Assembly (NCBI GenBank): GCA_038330465.1
Contig: JBBQOA010000001.1
Coordinates: forward strand, 1 to 32,442
DNA: 32,442 bases
DNA from: Pyrinomonadales bacterium
Lineage (GTDB): Bacteria > Acidobacteriota > Blastocatellia > Pyrinomonadales > Pyrinomonadaceae
Reading direction: 5' to 3'
A program made the translations under genes and the position numbers. Shown here one piece after another: positions 3,733 through 32,146 of the stretch; within the stretch, counting starts at the first letter, position 1; each line of letters opens with the position of its first letter. The notes beneath the pieces were generated by a model, which saw only the letters and a program-made list of their open reading frames with translations, was not told the DNA's origin and searched no databases.

Positions 3733-3751
3733 ATTCAATCGTTCTCCTCTA

Positions 3752-10188: not shown

Positions 10189-10232
10189 ATAATTTTCTCA
10201 ATACACTACGCGAAAAGTGAAGCAGAATCGGC

Positions 10233-13409: not shown

Positions 13410-13473
13410 GTTCGCAAGAAATTCAAGATTGGTTGACGGCGTTGTTTTAAATCGAAGTGAGGAGTTTGTCGAA

Positions 13474-16400
13474 ATGATTGGAAGACTAAATAAAATGTGT
13501 AAATTACTGTTGCTGAGTGCTTTTTTTGCAATGACCGCGCCGCTTTTTGCGCAAACGCCGAATGACGGATTCGACCCGAATGCCAACGCGGTCGTCCAAA
13601 AGGTTACCGTCTGGACGAACGGCAGGATCTTTGCCGGCGGCGGATTTACAACCGTCGGCGGCGTGACGCGAAACCGTCTCGTCGGTTTGGAGACGGGCGG
13701 CGGTTTGCTCAGCACATTTGCCCCGGATGTCAACGGCAATGTCAATGCCGTGGCGGTTCAAACAGACGGGCGCGTGCTGATCGGCGGCGCTTTTTCGATG
13801 GTCGGCGGCGTCGCGCACGATAATGTCGCGCGGGTCAACGTTGACGGCACTCCGGATGCCTTGTTCACCGCGCCGAACGGGGCAGTTCGTTCGATCGTTA
13901 TTCAGCCCGACGGGAAATTCATTATGGTTGGTTCATTTACTATGGTCGGCAGCGTTTCGCGTGTTCGTGTTTCACGACAAAATTCCGATGGGACAGGCGA
14001 CACAACTTTTAATCCGAGTGCCGATAACACGGTTGAAACCGTCATTCTGCAGCCTGACGGAAAAATTCTTATCGGCGGATTATTTACGAATATCAATGGG
14101 ATTACGCGCAATCGGGTGGCACGGCTCAATGCTGACGGCACGCTCGACACCAGCTTTAATCCGTCGGTAAATTTTCCCGTCCGAACCTTGGCGCTTCAAG
14201 CCGATGGAAAAATTTTGGTCGGGGGCGAATTCGGGAGCGTCAACAGCGTGGTCAGAAACCGAATCGCCCGGCTTAACGCCGACGGCACGCTCGACGCGGC
14301 GTTTAATCCGAATATGAACAGCACGGTCTGGTCGGTTGCCGTGCAGCCTAACGGGAAAATTATCGCGGGGGGAACCTTTACGACCGTCGGCGGCGTTTCG
14401 CGCTCGTATCTGGCGCGTTTGAATATGGACGGTTCGCTCGATACATCTTTTACGCCGAGTCCGAATACCGAGATTTATTCGGTCGATATTCAAACGGACG
14501 GAAAGATCGTTTTCGGCGGATTTTTTACGTCCGTGAACGGCGCGGCGCGCAACCGCCTCGCCCGCGTTTATCCGAACGGAATGCTCGAAACCGATTTCAA
14601 TCCCGATACGGGCGCTGCCGGAACGGTTTCGGCAATGATCTCGCAAGCAGACGGGCGCATTCTGATCGGCGGATTTTTCACGACCGTCGGCGGAACGGCT
14701 CGCGGACGCCTTGCCCGGCTGAACCCGAACGGAACTTTGGATACGACATTTCCCGACGTCCAGGCAAGTTCGATCGTTTTCGCGCTTGCCCGTCAAACTG
14801 ATGAAAAGATTTTGGTCGGCGGAACTTTTAATTCGATCGCCCAGACAAATCAGGCGGCATTGGCGCGATTAAATTCTAACGGCACGCTCGACGCCGCGTT
14901 CAATCCGACGGTGGTCGGCACGGTTCGGGCAATCAGCGTGCAATCAAACGGCAAGATCCTCGTCGGCGGACAACTGAGTCAGGTCAATGGAATTAATGTC
15001 AGCAATATTGTGCGGTTTAACTCAGACGGCACGCGCGACACATCATTTAATTTTACGGTCAACGCGCCGGTTGACGAAATTTTGATCCAAACGAACGGAA
15101 AGATCTTGATTCGCGGAACTTTCGACACGGTCAACGGCACAAATCGCCCGCGTCTGGCGCGTTTGAACGCTGACGGCGCAACACTCGACACAAGTTTTAC
15201 GCCCGTTTTCTCGAATACCGCGCCAACTATAACTTCTTTAAGCAAGATTTATTTGCAACAGAACGGAAAAATTCTGGTCGGCGGAAATTTTGATAACGTC
15301 AGCGGAACCTCACGGCAAAATATTGTTCGTCTGAACAGCGACGGAACGGTCGATACGGCATTTACCGCGAGCGCCAATCTGCAGGTCACTTCTTTTGCTG
15401 AAGAAACCGGCGGCATCAGGTTAATAATCGGCGGGCAATTTACAAGTTTTAACAGCGCGGCGTTTGCCGGACTTGTGGTTGTCGGCAGCAGCACCGGAAA
15501 TCTCGCGACTGCCATTAATGCGAACGTGAACGGGATTCCGAATGTCATTCTTGATCAGGCGGACGGGAAGCTTTTATTCGGCGGTTCATTTACGAGCGTC
15601 GGCGGAATCGCCCGCAACGGTCTGGCGAAGATTTTACCAAGAGGCGATGTCGGGCTCCAGGATGTGACCTACGCAGGCGGAACTCTATCCTGGTCGCTCT
15701 TTTACAGCGGTCCGCAGGTTCATCGCCTGACCTTTGAAAAATCAAACGACGGTATTAACTACACTCCGTTGGGCGACGGCACGCCAAATAGCAGTGCGAA
15801 CGTCTGGCAATTGAGCGGTGTTGCTTTTTCCGGCGGTTACATCAGGGCGCGCGGATTTTATCCTGATGCGTCAAATCAGCAATCAACGATTGAATTCATC
15901 AGATTCTTTGCGGTTCGAAATAAAGCGCCGTTTGATTTTGACGGCGATGGGAAAACCGACATCGGAATCTTTCGCGCTTCGGACGGCAGTTGGTGGTCGT
16001 CGCGATCGTCCGACGGTCAGGTGCGCGTTAATAGTTTCGGCGTTTCGACCGATATTCTAGTGCCCGGCGATTTCACCGGCGACGGCAAGACAGATGTCGC
16101 GATCTGGCGACCTTCGACCGGCTACTGGTTTATTCAGCGGAGCGACGACAATACTTATTTCTCGTTCCCGTTCGGCACTTTGGGCGACATTCCCGCGCCT
16201 GCCGATTACGACGGCGACGGGCGTACGGATGCGGCAATCTTTCGTCCGTCAACGGGGACGTGGTTTATCCTGCGCTCGGGCGACGGCGGCACGACGATCG
16301 CGTCATTCGGCGTCGCGGAAGATAAACCCGTGCCGGCGGATTACGACGGCGACGGCAAGGCGGACATCGCGGTCTTTCGTCCGTCGAGCGGTTCGTGGTG

Positions 16401-16755
16401 GATCGTTCGTTCGGCAAGCGGCGGGACCTATTCGGCAAGTTTCGGCGCTTCGACCGATAAACCGGTGCCGGGCGACTGGACCGGCGATGGCAAAGCGGAC
16501 ATCGCTGTCTGGCGACCTTCGACAGGCGAATGGTTCGTTCAGCGCAGCGAAGACGGCTCATATTTTTCGTTCCCGTTCGGCGCAGCGGGCGATCTGCCGG
16601 CGCCGGGCGATTACGACGGCGACGGACGATTTGACGCGGGCGTTTTCCGTCCGTCAACGGCGAACTGGTTCATCAGCCGTTCAACCGCCGGAATTCTCAT
16701 CACGGCATTCGGCGCCTCGGGCGACCGTCCGATTCCGAATGCGTTCGTGCCGTAA
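13474..16755 (+). CDS. Giant secreted protein: ~14 delta-60/DUF5122-type beta-propeller repeats, Ig-like linker, six FG-GAP/VCBS-type DxDGDG repeats
   Basis: GAGGAG lies upstream of ATG 13474, with signal peptide ..APLFAQ. A ~50-aa repeat (R.R.ARLN.DG.LD..F.P......V....Q.DGKIL.GG.F..V.G) occurs about 14 times. The C-terminus has DFDGDGKTD/DYDGDGRTD..FRPS.G.W repeats and ends in PNAFVP. Confidence 0.85.
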   Translation: MIGRLNKMCKLLLLSAFFAMTAPLFAQTPNDGFDPNANAVVQKVTVWTNGRIFAGGGFTTVGGVTRNRLVGLETGGGLLSTFAPDVNGNVNAVAVQTDGRVLIGGAFSMVGGVAHDNVARVNVDGTPDALFTAPNGAVRSIVIQPDGKFIMVGSFTMVGSVSRVRVSRQNSDGTGDTTFNPSADNTVETVILQPDGKILIGGLFTNINGITRNRVARLNADGTLDTSFNPSVNFPVRTLALQADGKILVGGEFGSVNSVVRNRIARLNADGTLDAAFNPNMNSTVWSVAVQPNGKIIAGGTFTTVGGVSRSYLARLNMDGSLDTSFTPSPNTEIYSVDIQTDGKIVFGGFFTSVNGAARNRLARVYPNGMLETDFNPDTGAAGTVSAMISQADGRILIGGFFTTVGGTARGRLARLNPNGTLDTTFPDVQASSIVFALARQTDEKILVGGTFNSIAQTNQAALARLNSNGTLDAAFNPTVVGTVRAISVQSNGKILVGGQLSQVNGINVSNIVRFNSDGTRDTSFNFTVNAPVDEILIQTNGKILIRGTFDTVNGTNRPRLARLNADGATLDTSFTPVFSNTAPTITSLSKIYLQQNGKILVGGNFDNVSGTSRQNIVRLNSDGTVDTAFTASANLQVTSFAEETGGIRLIIGGQFTSFNSAAFAGLVVVGSSTGNLATAINANVNGIPNVILDQADGKLLFGGSFTSVGGIARNGLAKILPRGDVGLQDVTYAGGTLSWSLFYSGPQVHRLTFEKSNDGINYTPLGDGTPNSSANVWQLSGVAFSGGYIRARGFYPDASNQQSTIEFIRFFAVRNKAPFDFDGDGKTDIGIFRASDGSWWSSRSSDGQVRVNSFGVSTDILVPGDFTGDGKTDVAIWRPSTGYWFIQRSDDNTYFSFPFGTLGDIPAPADYDGDGRTDAAIFRPSTGTWFILRSGDGGTTIASFGVAEDKPVPADYDGDGKADIAVFRPSSGSWWIVRSASGGTYSASFGASTDKPVPGDWTGDGKADIAVWRPSTGEWFVQRSEDGSYFSFPFGAAGDLPAPGDYDGDGRFDAGVFRPSTANWFISRSTAGILITAFGASGDRPIPNAFVP

Positions 16756-16911: not shown

Positions 16912-17850
16912 ATGAATTCAGATTCGATCAATTTTAAAACTCTCTGGAAACCCGTTTTGATCGGGTTCGGATTGACGTTTCTGTATGCCAATGTTTTGGC
17001 GAAACTCGGGCGTGATTGGTGGACGGACGAGAATTATTCGCATGGATTGCTTGTCCCGCTGGTCATCGGATTTATCATTTGGATGGAATCGGGCGACCTT
17101 CAAAAAACCTTCAAAACGCCGAAATTCCTGCTCGGCGGCGGCATCATTCTGTTGGCGATGCTGATGCTTTTGGGCGGCAGTCTCGGCGCCGAACTTTTTA
17201 CGCAGAGAGTTTCGTTGGTCTTGATGCTCGGCGGCACGGTCGTCTATTTTTTCGGGACGCAGATCTTACGCCTTTTGGTCGTGCCGTTTGCGCTGCTTTT
17301 GCTGGCGATCCCGATTCCGCAGATCATTTTCAACAAAATTGCGTTTCCTTTACAAATTTACGCGTCGCAGCTTGCCGTTTGGGGAATTCGTTTGTTTGAA
17401 ATCCCGACCGTTCGCAAAGGCAATGTTTTCGAGATCTTGCCAAACGGCGCGACGCAGGTCATCGCGCTCGAGGTCGTCGAAGCGTGCAGCGGAATCCGAA
17501 GCCTCATGACGCTTGTCACGCTCGCTTTGATCCTCGCCTATTTTACGCGGACAAAACGTGAATTACGCGAAAACGGCTGGTTCGATTTTTTGAAAAATCA
17601 AGACTTTTGGCGTGCCGTGCTTCTCATGCTCTCGGCAATTCCGATCGCGGTTTTAACGAATGCCGCGCGCGTTACGGCGACCGGCGTTTTGACCTACACG
17701 CGCGGACGGCAAGCGACCGAAGGACTTTTGCACGAAGCGCTCGGCTGGCTCGTTTATGTCGCCGCGCTCGCATTGCTGATTCTGGTTAATTTCTGCCTTC
17801 AGCTCATTTTTCGCAAAATTTCCGCAAACAAAATTCCGGCTGATGCGTAG
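16912..17850 (+). CDS. xrtA: Exosortase (XrtA/EpsH-type, without fused EpsI domain)
   Basis: 312 aa, polytopic. N-terminal W.DENYSHG. The family-defining catalytic-type residues are present in order: [10 protein letters not shown] (Cys), LTNAARV (Arg), LHEALGW (His). The subtype call rests on neighbouring EpsI, PrsT and ExeA-like ATPase genes. Confidence 0.85.
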
Positions 17851-17887
17851 AACTTCCGAAAGTTCGATTACAAACAAGGAGTTTTCT

Positions 17888-18346
17888 ATGCTAAAAAGAT
17901 CAGCCCTATTTTTTTTGTTTCTGACCGCGTTTGGCTTTCAGCTCAACGCGCAGACGACCGTTTCCGAGACGGACAAAGCCGCCATCAAACAAACCGCGCT
18001 CGATTATATCGAAGGCTGGTATGAAGGAAATGCCGAGCGCATGGAACGCGCGCTGCATCCCGATCTGGCAAAACGCATCGTGATGACGAAAGACGGCAGA
18101 AGCCGGCTCGAACAAATGAGCGCGATGAGTCTTGTGCAGGGCACGCGCAAAGGGTTCGGCAAAAATACGCCGAAGGAAAAACAGCAGAAAGATGTAACGA
18201 TTCTCGATGTTTACGAAAATGCGGCAAGCGTCAAGGTCGTCGCGTCCGATTGGATCGATTATCTGCACATCGCCAAATTCAACGGTCAATGGGTGATCGT
18301 CAATGTTTTGTGGGAACTGAAACCGCCGCCCGTGCCGAATAAATAA
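17888..18346 (+). CDS. Secreted NTF2-fold protein (putative lumazine-binding / SnoaL-like family)
   Basis: AAGGAG lies 7 nt before ATG 17888, with signal peptide MLKRSALFFLFLTAFGFQLNAQ. DYIEGWYEGNAERMERALHPDL...DYLHIAKFNGQWVIVNVLWE resembles the Lumazine_bd_2/NTF2-like family. Confidence 0.65.
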   Translation: MLKRSALFFLFLTAFGFQLNAQTTVSETDKAAIKQTALDYIEGWYEGNAERMERALHPDLAKRIVMTKDGRSRLEQMSAMSLVQGTRKGFGKNTPKEKQQKDVTILDVYENAASVKVVASDWIDYLHIAKFNGQWVIVNVLWELKPPPVPNK

Positions 18347-19104: not shown

Positions 19105-19377
19105 ACGCGCCGCCGGCGGGCTCCGATTGCTGATTATTTTCCTATCTCATAACTCCATTTGTAAATCCAAAAGTTTGTGCTATTCTTTCGCTTGTCCCCA
19201 ATAATTTCAAAATAAGTTTTGGTTCCGTTTTACGCGAACGAGGCGTTTTTTTATGCCGAACTTCTCATTAAAAGAGCGGAAACTGTAATTTTTTCTGAAA
19301 TTTAGGGGCGATTGGACTTTTTTCTTCAATGCCGGTGAAAATCGGTTAAATTGAAAATTAAGTTTTTCCGAAATGCT

Positions 19378-19406
19378 TTCCGAAGAGTTTGCCCCTCTTC
19401 GGAAAT
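19378..19406 (+). other. 11-bp perfect stem-loop in the epsI-prsT spacer
   Basis: tttccgaagag (19378-19388) / ctcttcggaaa (19396-19406) with loop tttgccc. There is no U-tract, so it is not a canonical terminator. Confidence 0.6.
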
Positions 19407-19420
19407 TGAATAAAAGTTTG

Positions 19421-19443
19421 ACGGTCAATGCCCGACGGTCAAG
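19421..19443 (+). promoter_or_regulatory. Direct repeat GACGGTCAA x2 (14-bp period) plus half-site agtcaa, 45-65 nt upstream of prsT
   Basis: gacggtcaa occurs at 19421-19429 and 19435-19443. The first copy lies within the palindrome ttgacGgtcaa. Candidate transcription-factor site; function is inferred only. Confidence 0.3.
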
Positions 19444-19486
19444 CCGAATAGTCAAAATTTTTCGGGGAAAATGTCTTTTGAAGAAA

Positions 19487-21871
19487 ATGATATTACGAGA
19501 GTGCCCGTTTTTTAAATTCAGATTTCTGTCACAAATCGCGTTATGCGGTTTGCTCGTCCTATTTGTCATCTCCTGCGGAGGATCCAAAGATAAACATATT
19601 GCCCGCGGCGAAGAATATTTGCAGAAACGCAAATTTCAGGAAGCCGTCATGGAATTTCGCGCCGCCGCCGATATCGATAAAGATTCGGCTGGCGCGCACT
19701 GGGGTTTGGCGCGGGCTTTTGAAAATCTCGGACAATTTAACGAAGCGCTCGAAGAACTGCGGAAAACGACGGAAATCGCGCCCGACAATCTCGACGCGAA
19801 AACGAAACTCGGCAATTATTATCTGCTCATTCAGCCGCCGATGCTTCCCGAAACCGAAAAGATCCTCGAAGAAATTTTCGCGAAAGACGCCGGTTTTATT
19901 GAAGGTCACATTCTTAAAGCCTCGCTGCTCGCAACGCAGGGCAAACCCGAAAAAGAAGTTCTCGAAGTTTTGAATCAGGCGATCGCGCTTAATCCCAACC
20001 GCACCGAATCATATATTAGTCTTGCCCGTTACTTTATGAAACAGGACAAGGCAAAAGAAGCCGAAGCCGCGATTCAGAAAGGAATTTCGGTCAATCCGGC
20101 GGCAGCGCTCGGCTACGTCGAATACGGCAGATTTTTGGTTTTTGCCGACCGCCCGGCGGAAGCCGAAGCGCAATTTAAAAAAGCGACCGAAGTTGAACCG
20201 CAAAATATCGAGGCGCGCGAAGCGGTTGCCGAATATTACGTCGCGCAAAAACAATTTGATAAAGCCGAAATCGCCTATAAAGATCTCGTTCAAATTCAGG
20301 AAAACAGCCCCGAAGCCCGCGTCGCGCTGGCGAATTTTTACGCGCAGGTCGGACGCACCAATGATGCCGTGACGATCTTTAACGAAATTCTGGCGGAAAA
20401 ACCCGAATATGTTCGCGCCCGCTATCGGCTCGGTGAAATTTATCTCGACCAAAAGGAAACCGCTAAAGTCAGCGAACAGATCGACGCGCTTTTGAAGATC
20501 AACGATAAAGACGCCGAAGCTTTGCTGCTGCGCGCACGACTTGATTTGCAGGACAATAAAGCGGACGAAGCGGTCAAAGATCTCGAAGAGATCCTCAAAA
20601 AAATGCCGAGTCACCGTGACGCGCTTTTCTTTATGACCGAAGCCAAACTCGCGCTCGGACAAACCGACCAAGCCCGCGCTTTTATCGGCGATCTCGACAA
20701 ATATCATCCGAACTATTTAAGAACGCGCCTGCTGAAAATTCAGGCGGCATTTGCCGACGGCGACGCGGCAAACGCGTTTCGGCTCGCAAACGAACTTTTT
20801 GAGACTTCAAAAGGCATTGTGCCCGACGCGGCGACGATGACGCAGGAGATCAACGAACTGCGGATTCGTGCGCTTTCGGCGCGCGGGCTTGCCAATCTTC
20901 AGCTCGGAAAATTGGCGGAATCGAAAACCGATCTGCTGGAAGTTTTAAAAAATTCGCCGAAGTCATCGGGCGCGATGGTCAATCTGGCAAAGGTTTTCAT
21001 CGCCGAAAAAAATCCGCCGGAAGCCTTGAAACTTTATGAAAACGCGCTTGCCGTTGACGCTAAGAATTTCGACGCGCTGAGCGGGACGATCGGTGTTTTG
21101 AATCGACAGAAACAATTCGCGGCGGCGCACGCCAAAGTTGACGAGTTTTTAGCGAAAAACCTTGACCGAAAAGACGTGTCGGCAGCGCTTCATTATTTAA
21201 AATCGGATGTCTTTATCGCGGAAAAAAATAATGATTCAGCCGCCGCCGAACTGCAAAAGGCGATCGAATCGGACGAAAATTATCTGCCCGCGTATTCGAC
21301 CTACGCCGCGCTTTTGATCGCCAAAAACCAAACCGACGCGGCGATCGAGCAATACAAAAAAGCGGTTGCAAAGAAACCTTCGGCGACCGTTTACACGCTG
21401 CTCGGAATGCTCGAAGAAGCGCGCAGCAATGCGCCCGAAGCCGAGAAAAATTATCGCCGCGCCTTAGAGATCACGCCCGAAACGCCGATCGCGGCAAATA
21501 ATCTGGCGTGGCTGATCGCCGACGGCGGGCAGGGAAATCTCGACGAAGCACTGCAGCTCGCGCAGAAAACGGTCAACACAAATTCGAACGTCGCCGGTTA
21601 TTACGACACGCTCGGCTGGGTTTATTTCAAAAAAGGTTTATATTCGCCGGCGGTCGAGCAGCTTAAAAAAGCGGTCGCGCTCGACGACGCGCAAGCGAAA
21701 CGAACGGGCGCGAAAACCAACGCGGCGTATCGTCTGCGATTAGGCACGGCGCTCGCTTCGGCGGGCGATAAATTTTCGGCGCGCCGGGAAGTTGAAACGT
21801 CGCTCGCCAACGAACAGAGTTTGAGCCAGAAAGAAGCGCAGGACGCGAAAATTCTTTTGGCAAATCTTTAG
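19487..21871 (+). CDS. prsT: PEP-CTERM system TPR-repeat lipoprotein
   Basis: The preferred start MILRECPFFKFRFLSQIALCGLLVLFVISCGG gives a lipoprotein signal (lipobox VISC). About 760 aa of consecutive TPR repeats follow. Size, architecture and position next to xrtA/epsI match PrsT (TIGR02917). The ORF-track extension from 19373 is rejected. Confidence 0.8.
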   Translation: MILRECPFFKFRFLSQIALCGLLVLFVISCGGSKDKHIARGEEYLQKRKFQEAVMEFRAAADIDKDSAGAHWGLARAFENLGQFNEALEELRKTTEIAPDNLDAKTKLGNYYLLIQPPMLPETEKILEEIFAKDAGFIEGHILKASLLATQGKPEKEVLEVLNQAIALNPNRTESYISLARYFMKQDKAKEAEAAIQKGISVNPAAALGYVEYGRFLVFADRPAEAEAQFKKATEVEPQNIEAREAVAEYYVAQKQFDKAEIAYKDLVQIQENSPEARVALANFYAQVGRTNDAVTIFNEILAEKPEYVRARYRLGEIYLDQKETAKVSEQIDALLKINDKDAEALLLRARLDLQDNKADEAVKDLEEILKKMPSHRDALFFMTEAKLALGQTDQARAFIGDLDKYHPNYLRTRLLKIQAAFADGDAANAFRLANELFETSKGIVPDAATMTQEINELRIRALSARGLANLQLGKLAESKTDLLEVLKNSPKSSGAMVNLAKVFIAEKNPPEALKLYENALAVDAKNFDALSGTIGVLNRQKQFAAAHAKVDEFLAKNLDRKDVSAALHYLKSDVFIAEKNNDSAAAELQKAIESDENYLPAYSTYAALLIAKNQTDAAIEQYKKAVAKKPSATVYTLLGMLEEARSNAPEAEKNYRRALEITPETPIAANNLAWLIADGGQGNLDEALQLAQKTVNTNSNVAGYYDTLGWVYFKKGLYSPAVEQLKKAVALDDAQAKRTGAKTNAAYRLRLGTALASAGDKFSARREVETSLANEQSLSQKEAQDAKILLANL

Positions 21872-21893
21872 ACACGCTTGACGGAGATTGAAA

Positions 21894-22073
21894 ATGGTTT
21901 TTTTGTTTAAGATCGCCAACCAGCTTTTGGGAATTATTCCCGAATCGCTCGGTTTGCTGATCTTCGGAGTCGGATTAATTTTATTGACGATCGGCTTGCG
22001 CTGGATCATGAAACGGAGCGAAAAGAGCGCGTCGCGCCCGGTCGAGCAAATGACGGAGAAAGTTAATCGTTAA
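21894..22073 (+). CDS. 59-aa micro-ORF: single-TM peptide resembling a cargo-less PEP-CTERM sorting signal
   Basis: GGAG lies 7 nt before ATG 21894. Product: MVFLFKIANQLLGIIPESLGLLIFGVGLILLTIGLRWIMKRSEKSASRPVEQMTEKVNR. It fills the prsT-wzz gap exactly (22 nt upstream, 14 nt downstream). Coding status is unproven. Confidence 0.4.
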   Translation: MVFLFKIANQLLGIIPESLGLLIFGVGLILLTIGLRWIMKRSEKSASRPVEQMTEKVNR

Positions 22074-22087
22074 ATTTTTAGGAAAAT

Positions 22088-23746
22088 ATGAGCATTGAAT
22101 TCAGACAAAGAACGGCTGGCGAATTTATCAAGATGCTGAAACGGCGGAAATGGTTTATTTTTCTGCCCGTCATCACGATGACGGTGGCGATCGGTTATGT
22201 CGTTTACAAATTGCCGAGCGTTTACGAATCAAAAACTCTGTTGACGGTCAAGCCGCCGACGATCTCCGATATCGTCGTCAAACCGCTTTCCGACGAAGAT
22301 CTATCGCAGCGTCTGCAAACCATCAATCAGGAAGTTATGTCGCGGTCGTCGCTTGAGCCGATGATCACAAAATACAATCTTTTCGAACTAGAAAGAAATT
22401 CGGGAATGGATATGGCGCTGATCGTTGACAAGATGCGCAAAAACATCGTCGTCGAACCCGAAAAGACCGACACCGAAAAACTCGCCGCGTTTCGCATCAG
22501 TTATCGCGACCGTAAGCCCGACGCGACGCGCAACGTGACGGCGGAACTTGCCGCCAAATATGTCAACGCGCAGGTTCTTGCTTCGACGCAAAATGCGGAA
22601 ACGACCCGCGATTTTCTTCAAAACGAATTGAACAACGCGAAAAACGAACTCGATACAAAGGAAAAAGAACGCCTCAACGTGATGATGCAGAATGTCGAGA
22701 CGCTGCCCGAATCGTCGCAGGGTTTGATCGCGCAGCTCGACGGTTTGCGCAAACGCGAAGACAGCATCGTCAAAGAAAAAGAAACTTTGGCAATGGAAAA
22801 AGGTCGGCTCAATGACCAGATCGCTTCGAACAACCGGCAGATGCGCGTCTATGACGAATACGGCGAAAAGGAAACGCAGGACGTCGCGCGGCAGGCTTCG
22901 CAGATCGAAGACACGCCCGCCTACGCCCAACTCGTCAATAAACGCGCCGAACTCAAAGCGCAGCTCGACAAACTGCTGAAGGTTTTCAAAGAAAAACATC
23001 CGGACGTGCAATCGAAAAAAGACGAGATCACACGCGTTGACGAAGAGATCGAAAATCTGCGAAAAAATACCGATAAGCGTGTTTTGGTGGCGAGTCAATC
23101 AAGCAGCCGCAAAGCCGAATTGCAGAAGAAAAATCTCGAACTCGAAAATCAGCGGATCCAAAGTCAGATCGGGCAGATCGAACAGCAGATTCAATATAAA
23201 AATCAAGAGGTTCAGCAAAACGCCGGACAGATCTCGATTCTCGAAACAAAGATCAACACGATTCCGAATGTCAAGGTCGCGCTCGAAGGCATCAACGCGC
23301 AGTATCAAACGGCGAAGCAAAAATACGACGATCTTTCGAAAAAGATCAACGACGCTTCGTTGCAGGTCAACCGCGAATCAAACGCGCAAGGCGAAACGAT
23401 CCGCGTGCAGGACGCCGCAAATTTGCCCGAATCGCCGGTCGCGCCGAAACGCGGGCTTCTGACCGGACTCGGCGCGGCGATCGGTTTGGCGATCGGTTTG
23501 TTTCTGGCGGCGCTCTTTGAACTGCCGCGTGTTTTCAAGATCCAGAATATCGAAGACGCCAAGCATTATACGGGTTTGCCTGTGCTCGCATCGGTTCCGC
23601 CGCTGCTCTCGCACGACGAGAAAGTGTGGCTCAAACGCTCGCACTGGCTGCGCGTGATGGCGGGCGTCGTCGCGGCAGTCGGCGCAATTCCGCTGATCGC
23701 GATGATTTTGCAGGCGACCAGAATTTTTGAACGAATGATTTCCTAA
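22088..23746 (+). CDS. Polysaccharide chain-length determinant (Wzz/GumC-type; PEP-CTERM-locus EpsF-like)
   Basis: 552 aa. N-terminal Wzz motif (KRRKWFIFLPVITMTVAIGYVVYKLPSVYESKTLL), a long periplasmic coiled coil, a P-rich segment (LPESPVAPKRG), and a second TM helix (LLTGLGAAIGLAIGLFLAALF). Confidence 0.85.
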   Translation: MSIEFRQRTAGEFIKMLKRRKWFIFLPVITMTVAIGYVVYKLPSVYESKTLLTVKPPTISDIVVKPLSDEDLSQRLQTINQEVMSRSSLEPMITKYNLFELERNSGMDMALIVDKMRKNIVVEPEKTDTEKLAAFRISYRDRKPDATRNVTAELAAKYVNAQVLASTQNAETTRDFLQNELNNAKNELDTKEKERLNVMMQNVETLPESSQGLIAQLDGLRKREDSIVKEKETLAMEKGRLNDQIASNNRQMRVYDEYGEKETQDVARQASQIEDTPAYAQLVNKRAELKAQLDKLLKVFKEKHPDVQSKKDEITRVDEEIENLRKNTDKRVLVASQSSSRKAELQKKNLELENQRIQSQIGQIEQQIQYKNQEVQQNAGQISILETKINTIPNVKVALEGINAQYQTAKQKYDDLSKKINDASLQVNRESNAQGETIRVQDAANLPESPVAPKRGLLTGLGAAIGLAIGLFLAALFELPRVFKIQNIEDAKHYTGLPVLASVPPLLSHDEKVWLKRSHWLRVMAGVVAAVGAIPLIAMILQATRIFERMIS

Positions 23747-23867: not shown

Positions 23868-24938
23868 ATGTATAAAGAATTTTTCGGATTAGAAGATACA
23901 CCGTTCACATTAACGCCCGACCCGCGTTTTATCGTGTTCACGCCGAGCTATAACGAAGTTTTGGCAAGTCTTTATTACGGACTCGAAAACGCCAAAGGCT
24001 TGATCGTCCTGACGGGCGAGGTTGGAACGGGAAAAACGACCGCGCTCAGATGGATCTTGCGGCGGCTTGATTCTTCCGTGCTGGCGGCGTATGTTTTCAA
24101 TCCGCGCCTCTCGATCGACGAGTTTTATCATCACGTCACGCAGATGCTTAATATCAAGGATTGGACGAACAAAGCCGAATTACTGCAAGTGATGGGCAAG
24201 GTTTTGGAAGAACGCCACCGGCGCGGATTACGGACGGTTTTGATCATTGACGAAGCGCACGAACTCTCGGATTACGTCCTCGAAGAAATTCGTCTTTTGA
24301 TGAATTTCGAATCGGACAACGCCAAACATCTGCAGATCGTTTTGACCGGACAACCGGAACTGCGCGAAAAGCTCAATCAGCCGAATTTGCGGCAGCTCAA
24401 ACAACGCGTTGCGCTGCGCTGCAAAATGCACGCGCTGCCGAATGTCGAAGAGATCGAACGCTATATCACCGAACGACTCCTGATCGGCGGTTCGGACCAG
24501 CCGAATATTTTCACGCCGGGCGCGATCGATTTTATTTTTCAATGTTCCGAGGGAATTCCGCGTCAGATCAATAATCTTTGCGATAATTCGATGCTCGCGG
24601 CTTACGCGGCGGGCGAACAGATCATCGGTCGGCAAATTGTCGAAGAAGTTGCCGACAATCTCGATCTGCTGCCGCGCAACGATGCCTTGCTGACAAGCGA
24701 AAAATCGGTCGAAAACGTCAGTTCGGCGCGCGTTTTGACCAATGAGGCGCGTGAGGAATTGTGGAGCAATCAAGCCCGCGCCGAAAAAGCCAAACCGATG
24801 TTCAAAACCGAACAGACGCAAAGCAACGGTAATGCAAAAGTCAGCGGCAACAGCAATTCAAACGGTCAACATTCGCCGTTTGACGATATGGACGACGACA
24901 TCAGTCTGGAAATCGAAGAAGTCGGCGGGTTTTATTAA
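23868..24938 (+). CDS. ExeA-like AAA ATPase (XrtA/PEP-CTERM system-associated ATPase type)
   Basis: 356 aa. FFGL...PF...PDPRF......Y.E.L..L.YG......G..VLTGEVGTGKTT is the ExeA/GspA-type N-terminus. Walker B is VLIIDEAHEL. Confidence 0.85.
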   Translation: MYKEFFGLEDTPFTLTPDPRFIVFTPSYNEVLASLYYGLENAKGLIVLTGEVGTGKTTALRWILRRLDSSVLAAYVFNPRLSIDEFYHHVTQMLNIKDWTNKAELLQVMGKVLEERHRRGLRTVLIIDEAHELSDYVLEEIRLLMNFESDNAKHLQIVLTGQPELREKLNQPNLRQLKQRVALRCKMHALPNVEEIERYITERLLIGGSDQPNIFTPGAIDFIFQCSEGIPRQINNLCDNSMLAAYAAGEQIIGRQIVEEVADNLDLLPRNDALLTSEKSVENVSSARVLTNEAREELWSNQARAEKAKPMFKTEQTQSNGNAKVSGNSNSNGQHSPFDDMDDDISLEIEEVGGFY

Positions 24939-24950
24939 TCAGCTTTGCTG

Positions 24951-25067
24951 AATTACAAATTACAAATTACAAATTTCAAAGGAAGATTAAAGTTACAAAA
25001 ACAGATTCAAATTACAAAGAAAGAGCAGTCAAGCGGATCAAAAATTTGAAATTTGAAATTTGTAATT
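24951..25067. repeat. AT-rich heptad repeat (aattaca x3, aatttca) with distal inverted copy, filling the ATPase-kinase spacer
   Basis: 24951-24980 holds the heptads. Its complement tttgaaatttgaaatttgtaatt is at 25045-25067. The 16-bp perfect IR is 24965-24980 / 25052-25067, with a 71-nt spacer. Confidence 0.95.
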
Positions 25068-25085
25068 GGATGACGGAGTAATCGA

Positions 25086-26078
25086 ATGAGTATTCTTAGA
25101 GCATTACAAAAAAAGCAAACCGAACAAACAACCGGAATAGCGGAAGATTCAAAAGGAACGGTCGTTCCTTTCGAGCGCGTGACAAAGCGCACGACCTCGC
25201 CGCCGGAAATGTTTACGGATGAAAGTTTTAAGATCGGAACACCGAGCTTGGCGTTCAATGGGCAGTCAGAGCTTACAGTCGGGACGGCACTCCCTGACTC
25301 TTTATCTGAAATCACTGCCGGGGCAACTTTGAACGCTACGGGAGCGACGCGCTTCGTCGAAAAACGTCTGCCGGAATTTACCGTGTGGAACGTCGAAGCG
25401 GAGCGCGTCGAACCTCGTCTGGTCGCGATCACTCAGCCGCATTCAAATTATTGCGAAGAATACCGCAATCTGAGAACGCAGATCCTGCACAAAAGCCAGC
25501 GTCAAAAATTGCAGTCGATCGTTGTTGCGAGCATCAATCCGAGCGAGGGAAAAACGATCACCGCGCTTAATCTTTCATGGCTGCTCGCGCAGACCGACGG
25601 CATTAAATGTCTGATCATCGACAGCGATCTGCGAATGCCGTCGTTGACGGATTATCTCGGCATCGAAGCCGACAAAGGACTTTCTGATATTCTGACCGGC
25701 AACACGAATTTGACGGATGCGATCATCAAACTGGAACCGTCAGGACTTCATCTGCTGCCCGGCGGCGAAGCGCGAACCGATGTCGCCGAACTCATTTCAG
25801 GACCGAAATTCAAAGAAATTCTGCGGCAGGCACGCGAAATGTTCGATTTTGTGATCATCGACGCGCCGCCGCTCGGGATGTTTACCGACGCGAATGTTTT
25901 GATCAATCACGCGGACGGCGCAATGCTTGTGCTGCGCGCCGGAAAAACCAAATACAGCGCGGTTGACCGGATTCTCGAATCGCTGCCGCGCGACCGGATG
26001 ATGGGCGTCGTGCTCAATCAATCGGAAGACGTTTTGGACGAAAGCCACTACAATTACGGATATTACAGACAAAAGTAG
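25086..26078 (+). CDS. BY-kinase (CpsD/CapB-type tyrosine autokinase; XrtA-associated EpsG-like)
   Basis: Walker A SINPSEGKT, Walker A' CLIIDSDLR, Walker B FVIIDAPPL, and a C-terminal tyrosine cluster HYNYGYYRQK. It is separate from the Wzz-like transmembrane activator (split arrangement). Confidence 0.9.
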   Translation: MSILRALQKKQTEQTTGIAEDSKGTVVPFERVTKRTTSPPEMFTDESFKIGTPSLAFNGQSELTVGTALPDSLSEITAGATLNATGATRFVEKRLPEFTVWNVEAERVEPRLVAITQPHSNYCEEYRNLRTQILHKSQRQKLQSIVVASINPSEGKTITALNLSWLLAQTDGIKCLIIDSDLRMPSLTDYLGIEADKGLSDILTGNTNLTDAIIKLEPSGLHLLPGGEARTDVAELISGPKFKEILRQAREMFDFVIIDAPPLGMFTDANVLINHADGAMLVLRAGKTKYSAVDRILESLPRDRMMGVVLNQSEDVLDESHYNYGYYRQK

Positions 26079-26148
26079 GAAGTTGGCAGGGTTTTCACAC
26101 CTAAAGATTTTTATTGCCGACTTCCCGATCGCCGACTGATTTTAACTG

Positions 26149-27540
26149 ATGAATGCAAACAAATTCAGCCTCCGAACAATTGGATTACTGCTTGCCGATG
26201 CCGCGATAATTTACGGCGGAATCGTGCTGGCTCTGTATCTGCGTTTGGGAATTGAAGGTTCGCGGTATCAGTTAAACGAAAAAAACGGCTGGCTGAAAAT
26301 CACTCTGGCAACGGTTGTCTGCACGCTGATTTTTTATTTTTACGACCTCTACGAATTTACCGTGATGAGCAACCGGCGCGAACTGATGCTGCGGCTCGTG
26401 CAAGCTCTCGGAATCGCCTGGGCACTGCTCGCGCTGTTGTTTTATTTTGTGCCGCCGCTGCTCATCGGACGCGGCGTTTCGGTCATTTCCGTGCCGCTCG
26501 TGCTGGTTTTGCTCTTAAGCTGGCGTTTTTTGATTCACTATTTTACCGGACATCCCGAGATCGGCGAAAAAATTCTGCTCGTCGGAACGGGACAAGCCGC
26601 GCGTGAAACTGCCCAAGCGGTTTTTGAACGGCGCGACGCCGGTTATCGGATCGTCGGTTTCGTCACCGAAAACGGCATCAAACCGAATACAAAGATCGCC
26701 GACCTCAGCGTTCTCGGGACAACCGGCGAACTCGAAGACATCGTCAAAAAAGAAAAGATCGACCGGATCGTGATAGCCGTGCGCGAACGGCGCGGAACTT
26801 TTCCGACCGAAACGCTCCTCAAAATGAGTTTGACGGGCGACGTCAATATCGAAGAATGCACGTCGTTTTTTGAGCGCGTCACGGGACAGGTCAATATCGA
26901 TATGCTGCGCCCGTCGTGGCTGATTTTTGCCGGACGCCGCAAAGATACGCGGCTCGGAACCGTTTTTCGTGAGATCGTTCATCGCGGATTGGCTTTGATC
27001 GGTTTGATCTTGTCGTCGCCGATCGCGCTTTTGACCGCTGTTTTGATCAAACTCGAATCGAAAGGCACTATTTTTTACAAACAGGAAAGAGTTGGAGAAA
27101 ACGGCAAGATCTTTCGGGTTTTAAAGTTTCGCTCGATGCGCAGCGATGCCGAAAAAGACGGCAAACCCGTCTGGGCAACCGCCGACGACGAACGCACGAC
27201 GCGGATCGGTCGCATCATCCGCAAGATTCGCGTCGATGAAATTCCGCAATTTTGGAACATTATCAAAGGCGAAATGAGCTTTGTCGGACCGCGCCCGGAA
27301 CGCCCGCATTTTGTCGCGCAGCTCGCCGAAGAAATTTCGTTTTACGATCACCGGCATCTGGTCGCGCCGGGACTCACCGGCTGGGCGCAGATCAAATATC
27401 CATACGGCGCGTCGGTCGAAGATGCGCGCCAGAAATTGCAATACGATCTGTATTACATCAAAAATCAGAGTCTCGCGCTGGATCTGGTAATTGTTTTTGA
27501 AACGGTCAAAACCGTGCTTTTCAGCAAAGGCGGACGCTAA
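26149..27540 (+). CDS. Polyprenyl-phosphate hexose-1-phosphate transferase (WbaP/EpsB-type priming sugar transferase)
   Basis: 463 aa with 4-5 N-terminal TM helices and a central Rossmann-like linker. The C-terminal bacterial sugar transferase domain is KQERVG..G..F...KFRSM...AE......WA...D.R.T..G...R..R.DE.PQFWN..KGEMS.VGPRPERP. Confidence 0.92.
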   Translation: MNANKFSLRTIGLLLADAAIIYGGIVLALYLRLGIEGSRYQLNEKNGWLKITLATVVCTLIFYFYDLYEFTVMSNRRELMLRLVQALGIAWALLALLFYFVPPLLIGRGVSVISVPLVLVLLLSWRFLIHYFTGHPEIGEKILLVGTGQAARETAQAVFERRDAGYRIVGFVTENGIKPNTKIADLSVLGTTGELEDIVKKEKIDRIVIAVRERRGTFPTETLLKMSLTGDVNIEECTSFFERVTGQVNIDMLRPSWLIFAGRRKDTRLGTVFREIVHRGLALIGLILSSPIALLTAVLIKLESKGTIFYKQERVGENGKIFRVLKFRSMRSDAEKDGKPVWATADDERTTRIGRIIRKIRVDEIPQFWNIIKGEMSFVGPRPERPHFVAQLAEEISFYDHRHLVAPGLTGWAQIKYPYGASVEDARQKLQYDLYYIKNQSLALDLVIVFETVKTVLFSKGGR

Positions 27541-27595
27541 CGCCCGCGTAAGCGGATGGATAAATGCAAAAGGGATTGAAGCAACTTGCGGGAAC

Positions 27596-27617
27596 TTTGA
27601 AATCTGGAATTTGAAAT
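27596..27617. repeat. Short relative of the tttgaaat repeats (tttgaaatctg-ga-atttgaaat)
   Basis: Read directly in the transferase-wza spacer. It shares tttgaaatctg with 23830-23840. Confidence 0.7.
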
Positions 27618-27659
27618 ATTTAGTTCGATAGTCGTTTTATTGAAACGGAGACAGGAAAG

Positions 27660-28484
27660 ATGAAAGTGGTAAAATTTTTGCAAAAAATCAGTTTAAGTTT
27701 AGTGGTCGGTTTAATTTTCGCCGGCGGTTTATCAGCGCAGACGGAAAATCCGAAAACACGCGACCGGATCGCGCCCGACGAAGTTAAAACGAATTCGGCG
27801 GAAACGGAGAAAGTCGAACCGACGCCGACGCCTGTGACGAACGGCGAGGATCAAACTTCAGAAGTAAAACCCGACGAAACCGAAAATATTCTCCCCTATT
27901 ACAACAATTATCTGAAAGAATACCGGCTCGGACCGAACGACATCATCACGGTCGAAGTTTTCGGGCAATGCCCCGATTATTGCAAAACCGGCATCACCGT
28001 GCCACCGACGGCGCGCATTTCTTATCCGCTGATCCGCGAAGGCATTCTGGTTGGCGGCAAAACCGTCGAACAAGTGGCGGACGAAATCACCAAAAAACTC
28101 GACGAATATATTATCGAACCGAAAGTGACCGTCACGCTCGACAAAGCAATGTCGGTGCGTTACAGCGTGATGGGCAAGGTTGCCGCGCCCGGCATCCGCA
28201 TTATGGACCGCAAAGTGAGTCTTTACGAAGCGATCATCGAAGCCGGCGGCATTACCAAAGAAGGCGACAAGAAAAAGATTTCCGTCATCAGTTTTGACGC
28301 GCAGGGCAAACTTTCGCGCCGCGATGTCAATCTCGCCGAGATCGAAACCGGCAAACAACCGATGATCTTTCTCAATCCGGGCGATCAGGTCGTCGTCGGC
28401 GGAAAAGGTTTTACGGTCGAAAAATTCTTTGATTATGTCGGAAGATTCAGCGCTTTACGAATTCTTTTCGGCAGTCCGTTTTAA
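27660..28484 (+). CDS. Polysaccharide export protein (Wza/Poly_export + SLBB; PEP-CTERM-locus EpsE-like)
   Basis: Signal peptide ..FAGGLSAQ. Poly_export motif YRLGPNDIITVEVFG. SLBB-like YSVMGKVAAPGIRIM..K.SLYEAI..AGG. Confidence 0.88.
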   Translation: MKVVKFLQKISLSLVVGLIFAGGLSAQTENPKTRDRIAPDEVKTNSAETEKVEPTPTPVTNGEDQTSEVKPDETENILPYYNNYLKEYRLGPNDIITVEVFGQCPDYCKTGITVPPTARISYPLIREGILVGGKTVEQVADEITKKLDEYIIEPKVTVTLDKAMSVRYSVMGKVAAPGIRIMDRKVSLYEAIIEAGGITKEGDKKKISVISFDAQGKLSRRDVNLAEIETGKQPMIFLNPGDQVVVGGKGFTVEKFFDYVGRFSALRILFGSPF

Positions 28485-29696: not shown

Positions 29697-29772
29697 GGGC
29701 ACGTACGTCAATTGGTAGACAGCCTCCCTTACAAGGAGGAAGTTAGGGGTTCGAGTCCCTTCGTGCCCACCA
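29697..29772 (+). tRNA. tRNA-Val (anticodon TAC), CCA encoded
   Basis: Hand-folded cloverleaf. Acceptor gggcacg/cgtgccc. The anticodon arm cctcc-ctTACaa-ggagg is identical to E. coli tRNA-Val(UAC). T-arm agggg-ttcgagt-ccctt. The D stem has one mismatch. Confidence 0.88.
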
Positions 29773-29780
29773 ATTTTGAA

Positions 29781-29820
29781 AATTTCAGATTATAAATTTC
29801 AGATTATAAATTTGAAATTT
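29781..29820. repeat. 14-bp tandem repeat aatttcagattata x2 plus degenerate third unit (aatttgaaattt) in the tRNA-Val/tRNA-Asp spacer
   Basis: Perfect units at 29781-29794 and 29795-29808. An identical 14-mer recurs at 30818-30831. Confidence 0.95.
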
Positions 29821-29827
29821 CCAATGC

Positions 29828-29905
29828 GGAGTCGTAGTTCAGTTTGGTTAGAACGCCAGCCTGTCACGTTGGAGGTCGCGGGTTCGAGCCCCGTCGGCTC
29901 CGCCA
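29828..29905 (+). tRNA. tRNA-Asp (anticodon GTC), CCA encoded
   Basis: Acceptor ggagtcg/cggctcc, anticodon arm ccagc-ctGTCac-gttgg, T-arm gcggg-ttcgagc-cccgt, discriminator G. Overall very similar to E. coli tRNA-Asp. Confidence 0.9.
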
Positions 29906-30386
29906 TTAACATCTTTATTATCAGTAGTTTCCGAAGTCGCCTCAGTGGCGGCTTTTTCGTTTTCAGGCAATGTGCCCAAAAACGTGCCCAAACCCTCTAA
30001 TTCATCAACCAGTTTACCGGCAATAAGCTCAGTAGTTTGCTGAGAAAAAGATGGTGAAAGATGTTTGTATCGCTCTAATTCATCGCTCCTATGTCCGGTC
30101 ATCTTGCGGATGATCGCATCTGAAACTCCCTCAATAAACAGCATCGTGGTCGCAAAGTGGCGCAGGTCGTGAATCCGCAAATCAGTAATATTGGCAAGAT
30201 CACGAATCCGACGGAAACGCTTCCAATATCCCAGGCGTGGGGCTTCTGGAATTTTGAGACATCACGAAATCGAACGTTCGGACGGGCAGGGAATAGGTAT
30301 TCGTGTTTCTGATTTCGATATGCAGATGATCGTGAATCACCGTCTATGTTCCAACTCGTTTCCGGTAATGATAAGCTGTTTCGCAA
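29848..30386 (-). pseudogene. Tyrosine recombinase (phage-type integrase) remnant: 5'-truncated and frameshifted, reading into tRNA-Asp
   Basis: One frame gives ..KHEYLFPARP....KPHAW. A second frame continues KRFRRIRDLANITDLRIHDLRHFATTMLFIEGVSDAIIRKMTGHRSDELERYKHL (HxxR, GH and catalytic Y boxes). The frames are offset by an apparent 7-nt insertion near 30223-30230. The N-terminal two-thirds, including the box I Arg, is absent. The open frame runs on into the tRNA-Asp 3' half. Confidence 0.7.
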
Positions 30387-30835: not shown

Positions 30836-32146
30836 TTAGGGAACGAAAGCATTGGGGACGGGTTTATCGCCGCTTTGTCCGAAGCCTTGAATTAGCGTTC
30901 CGGCGGTTGATCTTTGCACAAACCACGTTGAGTTTGAGGGACGGAAAACTGCCACATCGAACTTTCCGTCGCCGTCGTAATCGGCGGGCGTCGGAAGATC
31001 CGTTGAAATCCCGAACGGAAATGAAAAGTAACTCTGGTTCTCGCTTCTCAGAACAAACCATTCGCCGGTCGACGGTCTGTAGAAAGCGGCGTCAGCCTTG
31101 CCGTCGCCGGTATAATCTCCCTGAACGGGTTTGTCAGTGGCGGTTCCAAATTGGAAAGCGATTACTCCATCGGTACTTCGATTGATCCACCATTCGCCTG
31201 TAGAAGCACGATAAATGGCAATATCCGCTTTAAAGTCACCGTCAAAATCAGCGACAACCGGAACATCGCCCGCCGTGCCGAACTTTTGAATTGTCGTTCC
31301 ACCGGAAGATTTATTGATATACCACGTTGAATTCGAGGGACGAAAAACTGCCGCATCGCTACGTCCGTCACCGTCGTAATCGGCAGGCGCGGGAATATCA
31401 CCGTTTGTTCCAAACGGGAATGAATAAAAACTGTTGTCTTCACTTCTCAGGAAAAACCACTCGCCTGTTGAAGGTCGAAAGACGGCAAGATCGGTTTTAC
31501 CATCGGCGGTAAAATCGGCGGGAACGATTTGGTCGGTGCTGTTGCCGAATTGTAAAGTTATATTGTTTGAGTCACTGCTTTTCGAATACCACCATTCACC
31601 GGCTGACGGGCGATAAATTGAAATGTCCGCTTTTCCGTCTGCATCAAAATCGAACGGTGTCGGTGAGAATGTTCGTTCAAACGCGCCGATGTCCGCGCCG
31701 TCGCCGCTTGCCGCGTTTGGAATGAGCAGATTGTCATATGGGCGGACTTTACCGCGCTGGTCAGTGATAACACTTGGGCTATTGCCTTTGTCAATCGCCG
31801 GACTGCGCGTCAGCACTGCCCGCGTTAAGGTCAAACCGCCGTTATCTCTCAAAGTTCCTATGTGCGGATCGATTGGACTTAGGGTTGAACCGAGTTGATT
31901 GGTGGTTGCTCCTAATCCTTCGCTGCCGTCAGCGTTCCCGATCAGATTGTAACTGCCGTTGAACGCATTGCCGAGGCTTCCGCGTCCGACCAGGTCATTC
32001 CCGTCAGGCGCCGTGTTCAATGCGACGAGATTGTTGTTCATGGTCGCGACGAAATTGTTGAAGATGCCGCCTCCGCTTGCTTGAGCGGTGTTGCTGCTGA
32101 CGGTGTTATTAGTAAAGGTGATTGTCGCCGAATGGCGTTGTTGCAT
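30836..32146 (-). CDS. Parallel beta-helix (choice-of-anchor-Q-like) / FG-GAP repeat protein, apparently 5'-truncated by IS insertion
   Basis: The 436-aa ORF opens mid-beta-helix (ATITFTNNTVSSNTAQASGGGIFNN) with no signal peptide. It has the typical helix-end motif DQRG..RP......DIGAFE. Six DxDGDG FG-GAP repeats follow, and it ends in PNAFVP like 13474-16755. The IS transposase gene starts 43 nt upstream, divergently. Confidence 0.8.
   Translation of the reverse strand: MQQRHSATITFTNNTVSSNTAQASGGGIFNNFVATMNNNLVALNTAPDGNDLVGRGSLGNAFNGSYNLIGNADGSEGLGATTNQLGSTLSPIDPHIGTLRDNGGLTLTRAVLTRSPAIDKGNSPSVITDQRGKVRPYDNLLIPNAASGDGADIGAFERTFSPTPFDFDADGKADISIYRPSAGEWWYSKSSDSNNITLQFGNSTDQIVPADFTADGKTDLAVFRPSTGEWFFLRSEDNSFYSFPFGTNGDIPAPADYDGDGRSDAAVFRPSNSTWYINKSSGGTTIQKFGTAGDVPVVADFDGDFKADIAIYRASTGEWWINRSTDGVIAFQFGTATDKPVQGDYTGDGKADAAFYRPSTGEWFVLRSENQSYFSFPFGISTDLPTPADYDGDGKFDVAVFRPSNSTWFVQRSTAGTLIQGFGQSGDKPVPNAFVP

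Follow-up and report, generated by a model that had tools for sequence, protein, structure and literature searches.

A cargo-less, PEP-CTERM-like micro-protein encoded between PrsT-like and Wzz-like genes in exosortase-linked exopolysaccharide loci of Acidobacteriota

The PEP-CTERM sorting signal has been defined by a near-invariant PEP motif, a transmembrane helix and a basic cluster, all of them located at the C-terminus of a carrier protein which also bears a signal peptide and a cargo (PMC1569441; restated in PMC12188702). Exosortases were predicted in 2006, and their cleavage site, acceptor molecule and regulation are still hypothetical (PMC1569441, PMC12188702); even in the case of canonical clients, processing by the exosortase is only a model (PMC12188702). 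Genuine PEP-CTERM proteins from a lineage related to the one described here were found at two loci, L096 and L102, where a gene upstream of the exosortase specifies a small protein with a signal peptide, followed by a Cys/His-rich cargo and, as its tail, VPEPITMLLFGSGLAGVGYAARRLRKK. At both loci (L096:1811-3933; L102, ~1842-3891) the exosortase is fused to EpsI, and the cargo of the upstream PEP-CTERM protein, which carries repeated 'CH...HGD...G.C' motifs, is possibly metal- or redox-related. Ten database relatives of the L096 protein all carry the PEP-CTERM domain PF07589, and these small proteins are to be compared with PepA of floc-forming Betaproteobacteria (NF033554). A second group of proteins relevant here comprises the bacterial small membrane-protein regulators or subunits and proteins of the Pf3 coat type, which are N-out, single-span and approximately 50-60 aa in length.

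The locus under study is located in a stretch of 32,442 nucleotides, hereafter referred to as the window (Pyrinomonadales bacterium contig JBBQOA010000001.1, assembly GCA_038330465.1, positions 1-32,442 of the forward strand). The gene order in this locus is exosortase, Lumazine_bd_2-domain protein, EpsI, PrsT-like lipoprotein, micro-ORF, Wzz-like protein, ATPase, kinase, glycosyltransferase, exporter and BNR protein. The main neighbours of the micro-ORF are the following:

16912..17850, + strand: exosortase, the presumed partner of the micro-protein; PF09721 215 bits, TIGR02602 176.5 bits
18424..19104, + strand: EpsI (exosortase-associated protein), a separate gene in the window; TIGR02914 111 bits, above the cut-off of 42.8
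19373..21871, + strand: PrsT-like TPR lipoprotein gene (832 codons), directly upstream of the micro-ORF; TIGR02917 250 bits, below the cut-off of 312
22088..23746, + strand: Wzz/PCP-type chain-length determinant gene (552 codons), directly downstream of the micro-ORF; TIGR03007 193 bits, below the cut-off of 279
23868..28484, + strand: TIGR03015-like ATPase, tyrosine autokinase, TIGR03013 priming glycosyltransferase and polysaccharide exporter, the rest of the conserved operon

The markers of the XrtA system (PrsT, TIGR03007, TIGR03015, TIGR03018 and TIGR03013) are the best-matching models for their genes in the window. The only one of them to score above its cut-off, however, is TIGR03013 (484.9 bits vs 393), TIGR03015 and TIGR03018 reaching 249 bits vs 324 and 142 bits vs 231, respectively. 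The exosortase passes the generic model TIGR02602 (cut-off 105.55) and misses the XrtA equivalog TIGR03109 (166.2 bits vs 208), its best partial matches being the N-terminal halves of XrtD and XrtW. Curated cut-offs are thus passed in this locus by the TIGR03013, EpsI and generic exosortase models only. Since the exosortase, PrsT and the chain-length determinant all score under their equivalog cut-offs, the locus is XrtA-like and not certified XrtA; the earlier note on this DNA, which had used the labels xrtA and prsT, was slightly too specific in these names. The exosortase shares 57% identity with that of L096 and keeps the conserved Cys192, Arg253 and His274, such a triad having been proposed as catalytic by Haft et al. 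(PMC1569441). A secreted protein with a Lumazine_bd_2 domain is encoded between the exosortase and EpsI genes (17843-18346, + strand), overlapping the exosortase stop by 8 nt, an insertion found only in the window and in L014 among the first 26 loci. As for the PrsT-like gene, its true start is probably M39 (nt 19487) and not 19373: the lipobox LFVISC then follows, and orthologue alignments begin at about residues 27-39.

The micro-ORF itself is separated by 22 nt from the PrsT-like gene upstream and by 14 nt from the Wzz-like gene downstream, and its product is MVFLFKIANQLLGIIPESLGLLIFGVGLILLTIGLRWIMKRSEKSASRPVEQMTEKVNR. The following parts can be distinguished:

21883..21886, + strand: Shine-Dalgarno element GGAG, 7 nt 5' of the ATG; a similar GGAG/GGAGG-type element is present in most orthologous loci
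21894..22073, + strand: micro-protein gene, 59 aa plus stop (ATG at 21894, stop at 22071-22073), for a predicted cargo-less, PEP-CTERM-like single-pass membrane protein
21894..21938, + strand: residues 1-15 (MVFLFKIANQLLGII), a short hydrophobic/amphipathic N-terminal segment, moderately conserved, without a signal peptide and predicted to be periplasmic
21939..21947, + strand: P16-E17-S18 motif, the counterpart of PEP in PEP-CTERM, which aligns with the invariant PEP of genuine tails
21948..21998, + strand: residues 19-35 (LGLLIFGVGLILLTIGL), predicted transmembrane helix with the conserved pattern LL-x-FG-x-GL; pLDDT >90
21999..22025, + strand: residues 36-44 (RWIMKRSEK), basic cluster (R36, K40, R41, K44) at the predicted cytoplasmic face
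22026..22070, + strand: residues 45-59, charged tail of variable length, predicted to be cytoplasmic; the least constrained region (pN 0.51)

All coordinates given in the earlier note for the ATG, the GGAG 7 nt upstream and the placement between the two large ORFs check out, and the succession it described is present as I-P-E-S (residues 15-18), the Gly-punctuated hydrophobic stretch and RWIMKRSEK. A soluble tail peptide of the micro-protein would be, e.g., SASRPVEQMTEK. An alternative TTG start at 21888 was ruled out, as it lies 1 nt from the Shine-Dalgarno element and the ATG is conserved in orthologues. The family consensus of the N-terminal segment is xFLFxxxxNxNLLLGx. The window copy is atypical in this region: position 6 is Lys, as against Glu or Asp in 54% of the family, and the conserved N-x-N-L-L-L-G segment is two residues short (21894-21938).

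The micro-ORF is a gene, not a spacer. A word-indexed search yielded 21 homologues of 50-61 aa with 55-74% identity to the window peptide, P16, E17, S18, G20-G25, L28, R36 and K40 being invariant in this close set. An exhaustive profile search of 1.84 billion representatives led to the identification of 182 clusters (50% identity) at E <= 0.001, and 235 unique homologues were gathered altogether. Among the matches listed, family members are nearly all stand-alone proteins of 42-110 aa aligned from their N-termini; 168 of the 171 family sequences retrieved are no longer than 90 aa. The frame was intact, with an ATG start, in all 24 of the 24 distinct ORFs extracted from the first-round loci, mostly with a Shine-Dalgarno element of the GGAG type. 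The micro-ORF is under purifying selection, with dN/dS values (Nei-Gojobori) of 0.24 overall, 0.16 in the motif plus helix and 0.23 in the N-terminal segment. The synonymous-biased divergence which the earlier note had named as a sign of a real gene was hence found, and its alternative of an ordinary spacer, absent or non-conserved in orthologous loci, is refuted by the intact frames and by this selection. An explanation in terms of an RNA element or leader was rejected as well, since the gap between the PrsT-like and Wzz-like genes contains neither an Rfam family nor a promoter-like site on the plus strand, nor any convincing terminator. One database protein, P0053 (144 aa), consists of the first ~73 residues of a PrsT-like lipoprotein joined directly to the micro-protein sequence, and reflects a natural loss of most of PrsT or else an artefact of assembly or gene calling.

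The position of the micro-ORF is conserved in two sets of loci. The order PrsT-like, micro-ORF, Wzz-like, ATPase, kinase and glycosyltransferase was observed in 26 of 26 first-round loci; in addition, a PrsT-like gene was located upstream in all other micro-ORF loci whose upstream sequence was long enough, and a Wzz-like gene always downstream, at a distance of 3-90 nt. An independent set of 80 metagenomic loci was found by alignment of Wzz, and in 52 of the 61 loci that had enough upstream sequence for testing the micro-ORF occupied the gap. Synteny between prsT and the chain-length determinant, which had been proposed as a check, therefore holds. The exosortase and EpsI are encoded upstream of the micro-ORF in most first-round loci, yet in L002, L026, L032 and about five of the Wzz-found loci the micro-ORF is maintained beside Wzz with no exosortase upstream. 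A genome scan detected the micro-ORF in 22 species-level MAGs labelled Pyrinomonadaceae, Blastocatellaceae or Acidobacteriota, and all sampled homologues belong to Acidobacteriota of the Blastocatellia/Pyrinomonadaceae type and reside in the same slot. Since members with only 35-45% identity to the window peptide occupy this slot next to neighbours which are 56-80% identical to the proteins of the window, the family is lineage-restricted and evolves faster than its neighbours.

The micro-ORF is nevertheless dispensable, i.e. an accessory and not a core part of the system, because it has been lost several times. In seven Wzz-found loci PrsT is followed by Wzz with no micro-ORF in between. The gap is 31-106 nt long in L051, L079, L092, L085, L086 and L111 (five loci, an identical pair being counted once) and 177 nt long in L069; L093 has a degenerate relative of the micro-ORF in the gap, whereas L096 and L102 lack PrsT and have the fused exosortase-EpsI directly before Wzz. 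In a rough neighbour-joining tree of Wzz, loci lacking the micro-ORF are interspersed with loci that have it, which implies at least three losses. This dispensability in some lineages narrows the roles that had been considered (a pseudo-substrate or regulator, an adaptor, a small membrane peptide) in this respect and in no other.

As regards the relationship to PEP-CTERM, the window peptide alone fails at curated thresholds. It has no match in NCBIfam even at E <= 10, TIGR02595 included, and reaches 12.5 bits against PF07589 (cut-off 20.7), a sub-threshold score amid noise from unrelated transmembrane families. The single-peptide match to TIGR02595 which had been proposed as a check was thus not reached, nor was significance against PF07589, and these scans, taken alone, would have counted against a PEP-CTERM reading. 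The family gave a different result. When 150 members were scanned singly, PF07589 was matched, at sub-threshold level, by 71 of them and the next family, an LPXTG anchor, by 11; the commonest matches in NCBIfam over the same members were to models that nearly all belong to PEP-CTERM, namely floc_PepA (22), TIGR02595 (20), EDSAP-1 (15), NF038129 (10) and THxN (9). Among ~43,000 family models of Pfam and NCBIfam, those of PEP-CTERM are by far the most frequently matched. Two natural variants with P-E-P, P0060 and P0113, both of them from the same slot, pass the PF07589 threshold with 21.8 bits. The search of 1.84 billion representatives with the family profile returned no tails of large PEP-CTERM proteins among the 150 matches listed; a motif of 35 columns cannot reach significance in such a large database. 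The micro-protein HMM does, however, detect the tail of the bona fide PEP-CTERM protein at L096 (E = 2.6e-6).

Alignment of the micro-protein family (A2) with the genuine PEP-CTERM tails of the L096-type family (A5) by hhalign resulted in a probability of 96.2% and E = 2.1e-9 over 35 ungapped columns corresponding to micro-protein residues 13-47. The score of 44.9 is to be compared with 7.7±1.9 (maximum 18.2) for 200 column shuffles and with 15.7 for the reversed alignment. A score of 36.2 was still obtained with the PEP columns displaced, hence most of the signal comes from the shared helix and Arg pattern, the PE motif adding ~9 units. In the 235 unique members the most conserved residues are R36 (100%), G25 (96%), L28 (95%), E17 (94%), P16 (90%), L22 (89%) and F24 (87%), and all seven of these positions fall on residues that are invariant in the canonical tails. 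The conserved pattern of the helix is matched there by invariant L, F, G, G and L. Motif position 18 is occupied by S in 74%, T in 13%, P in 5% and A in 4% of the same members, and the basic region shows W/R37 in 84%, R/K41 in 75% and E/D43 in 74%. We conclude from these profile comparisons that the micro-protein is homologous to the PEP-CTERM domain, or at least under a like constraint. The reading of the earlier note, a stand-alone PEP-CTERM-like signal devoid of signal peptide and cargo, is supported at the level of the family by the model matches, hhalign, synteny and purifying selection.

In common with the PEP-CTERM domain (PF07589/TIGR02595), the micro-protein has a Gly-rich transmembrane helix with P-E at its outer end, an Arg/Lys cluster thereafter and the same predicted orientation, is encoded in an exosortase-linked EPS locus, and gives a significant, order-specific profile match. 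In contrast to that domain, whose third Pro is near-invariant, it usually has Ser (74%) at this place, the domain makes up most of the protein, and a conserved N-terminal peptide of 15-20 residues precedes it. Only 15 residues stand before the motif in the window copy, with neither a basic n-region nor a cleavage site, so that a signal peptide and cargo are lacking; after the first Arg there follow 23 residues (the module lying in the C-terminal two-thirds), compared with 6-13 in canonical tails of the related lineage. The predicted helix right after the motif, the basic cluster and an exosortase in the same gene cluster are present, whereas Pro-Glu-Pro, a signal peptide with cargo and a score above the curated cut-off are not, and for this reason the micro-protein is not a PEP-CTERM member in the curated sense. 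With the small proteins of the L096:1811-2209 family (P0172-P0181) it shares the tail pattern and spacing PE-x5-FG-x-GL-x7-R followed by R/K-x-E, as well as small size, the same kind of EPS cluster and an orthologous exosortase. Unlike it, these proteins possess a Sec signal peptide, a Cys/His-rich cargo of 60-170 residues and an invariant PEP, and they are encoded upstream of a fused exosortase-EpsI in loci without PrsT and micro-ORF. Canonical PEP-CTERM tails, sought by both regular expression and HMM in the window and ~900 kb of related loci, were found in no locus with the micro-ORF but only at L096 and L102, which bears out the earlier statement that no large secreted protein of the window carries such a tail; a hydrophobic-plus-basic C-terminal tail is likewise lacking from the secreted proteins of the window. 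Two of the latter, encoded at 13429-16755 (+ strand) and 30836-32146 (- strand), share a C-terminal module of ~70 aa ('...FG.SGD.P.PNAFVP', XAC2610-like), one being a delta-60/FG-GAP repeat protein and the other having a choice-of-anchor Q domain. This may be a different anchoring or sorting module in Pyrinomonadales bacterium.

The N-flank of the helix contains on average 0.3 K+R and 1.6 D+E in 168 members, and the 12-residue C-flank ~3 K+R, the C side being the more basic one in 92%. According to the positive-inside rule, such an acidic N-flank and basic C-flank predict an N-out/C-in topology, which is the orientation of the PEP-CTERM anchor. The family mean Kyte-Doolittle hydropathy of the helix is 2.2, and the AlphaFold (AF2) monomer consists of helices only: residues 3-11, a break at 12-14, a confident helix at 15-47 (core pLDDT >90) and a short helix in the tail. 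An acidic N-tail of 15 residues can traverse the membrane unaided by a signal peptide, small YidC-type proteins being an example, and by analogy the micro-protein may be inserted N-out/C-in in the same way. It resembles the small membrane regulators and Pf3-coat-type proteins in its length of ~50-60 aa, single helix, predicted N-out/C-in topology and encoding in an operon beside large membrane partners; having no sequence relationship to them, it is analogous in size, topology and likely mode of action only.

The micro-protein very probably works through the same recognition surface as PEP-CTERM. The role tentatively preferred here is an accessory one, namely that of a pseudo-substrate or adaptor which would dock in the substrate site of the exosortase, occupy or tune the enzyme and couple it to the Wzz-type machinery. 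This role is favoured because the protein has no cargo, is dispensable and usually bears Ser at the position in which Pro is kept by the canonical tails of this lineage. It would be a free-standing PEP-CTERM homologue of the inner membrane in which the module has been kept (P-E, the LL-x-FG-x-GL helix, the invariant Arg and the basic cluster) and the signal peptide and cargo have been lost. Insertion would proceed N-out/C-in without a signal peptide, the acidic N-tail and basic C-flank resembling those of the Pf3 coat protein, and the PES motif would thereby come to sit where the PEP of a normal client sits. The micro-protein could then dock in the substrate site of the exosortase encoded at the locus and, offering no cargo for sorting, might occupy or tune the enzyme as an adaptor subunit or pseudo-substrate. 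Its conserved periplasmic N-peptide is a plausible TPR ligand for the PrsT-like lipoprotein encoded just upstream, and this peptide together with the position in the operon might couple the exosortase to the Wzz-type polysaccharide machinery. Docking in the exosortase is counted against by the score of the window peptide under every curated cut-off, by Ser as the third motif residue and by the 23 residues after R36, a tail longer than in typical sorting signals. The retention of the micro-ORF beside Wzz in several loci with no upstream exosortase fits a partner of Wzz or PrsT equally well.

It is unlikely that the micro-protein is instead a true minimal substrate of the exosortase, cut at or near P-E-S, with the hydrophobic N-peptide of 17-18 residues moved to nascent exopolysaccharide, a lipid, a component of the cell envelope or a similar acceptor, so that the N-peptide itself would be the 'cargo' (a primer, cap or anchor). 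The whole recognition module has been kept, gapless against genuine tails and with the residues after the helix included, the N-terminal segment is constrained (dN/dS 0.23, with the conserved N-x-N-L-L-L-G), members with PEP or PET are found naturally in this slot, and the catalytic residues of the exosortase are intact, all of which is in line with such processing. The replacement of the third Pro by Ser in 74% of members, when PEP is invariant in canonical tails of the same lineage, and the repeated loss of the micro-ORF from an operon that otherwise stays argue against it, as does the fact that the exosortase cleavage product has so far been chemically defined in no system (PMC12188702). 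Somewhat less probable still is the stronger proposal that the exosortase of this lineage has the micro-protein as its dedicated and possibly sole client, with a cut at P-E|S and attachment of the N-peptide to nascent exopolysaccharide or its lipid carrier as a primer, cap or membrane anchor; if it were true, the product would reveal the long-unknown acceptor chemistry of exosortases.

Nor does it seem likely that the protein serves the Wzz/PCP-tyrosine kinase (or PrsT) machinery as a small membrane subunit or regulator while being functionally unconnected with the exosortase, its likeness to PEP-CTERM being an evolutionary relic of its origin or a convergence. The micro-ORF is always immediately 5' of Wzz (gaps of 3-90 nt), even where no exosortase/EpsI is adjacent, and the hhalign score derives mostly from the helix and Arg cluster (36.2 of 44.9 with PEP displaced), both of which speak for this view. 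However, the 90-94% conservation of P16/E17 at the helix boundary is hard to explain without a constraint of the exosortase recognition type, the order-specific match spans 35 columns, and PEP-CTERM models dominate among ~43,000. Finally, a non-functional origin as a chance ORF, a decaying remnant of a PEP-CTERM pseudogene or a leader ORF which would act on Wzz expression through being translated rather than through its product, to which the very short ORF, the lack of a significant family-model match of the window copy and the loci that do without it might have pointed, is very improbable and effectively refuted by conservation, there being 235 unique intact homologues of conserved length with residue-specific conservation (R36 100%), a dN/dS well below 1, an own Shine-Dalgarno element and a gap free of Rfam elements and terminators.

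No Pfam or NCBIfam model covers the micro-protein, and in the public sources checked it is nameless or a 'hypothetical protein'. A description of a cargo-less sorting tag was not found by full-text literature search, the 2012 exosortase survey lying outside the scope of that search, which agrees with the earlier note, to whose author no component of this kind was known. A conserved natural protein that is little more than a recognition tag would be useful whatever its role and may provide a minimal handle on exosortases. As a substrate, it would be a model client of 59 residues with a small product trackable by mass spectrometry; were it a pseudo-substrate or adaptor, it would connect the exosortase physically with the Wzz/PCP machinery and, as far as could be found, no protein had previously been proposed to modulate an exosortase. 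The 182 clusters add an unannotated micro-protein family to the EPS loci of soil Acidobacteriota, and show that a sorting signal can survive as a gene in its own right.

Two further features of the window lie outside the operon described above. An ECF sigma factor gene followed by a gene for a Ser/Thr kinase-TPR protein (7501-10787, - strand) is divergent from the block of secreted-protein and exosortase genes, and the pair could be the regulators of this block. Downstream of the operon, tRNA-Val and tRNA-Asp (29697-30180) are followed by an ORF, overlapping tRNA-Asp on the opposite strand, which resembles a C-terminal piece of a tyrosine recombinase; in L001 the corresponding position behind the BNR gene is taken by a complete integrase gene. 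A genomic island probably has its boundary here, where the EPS operon ends.
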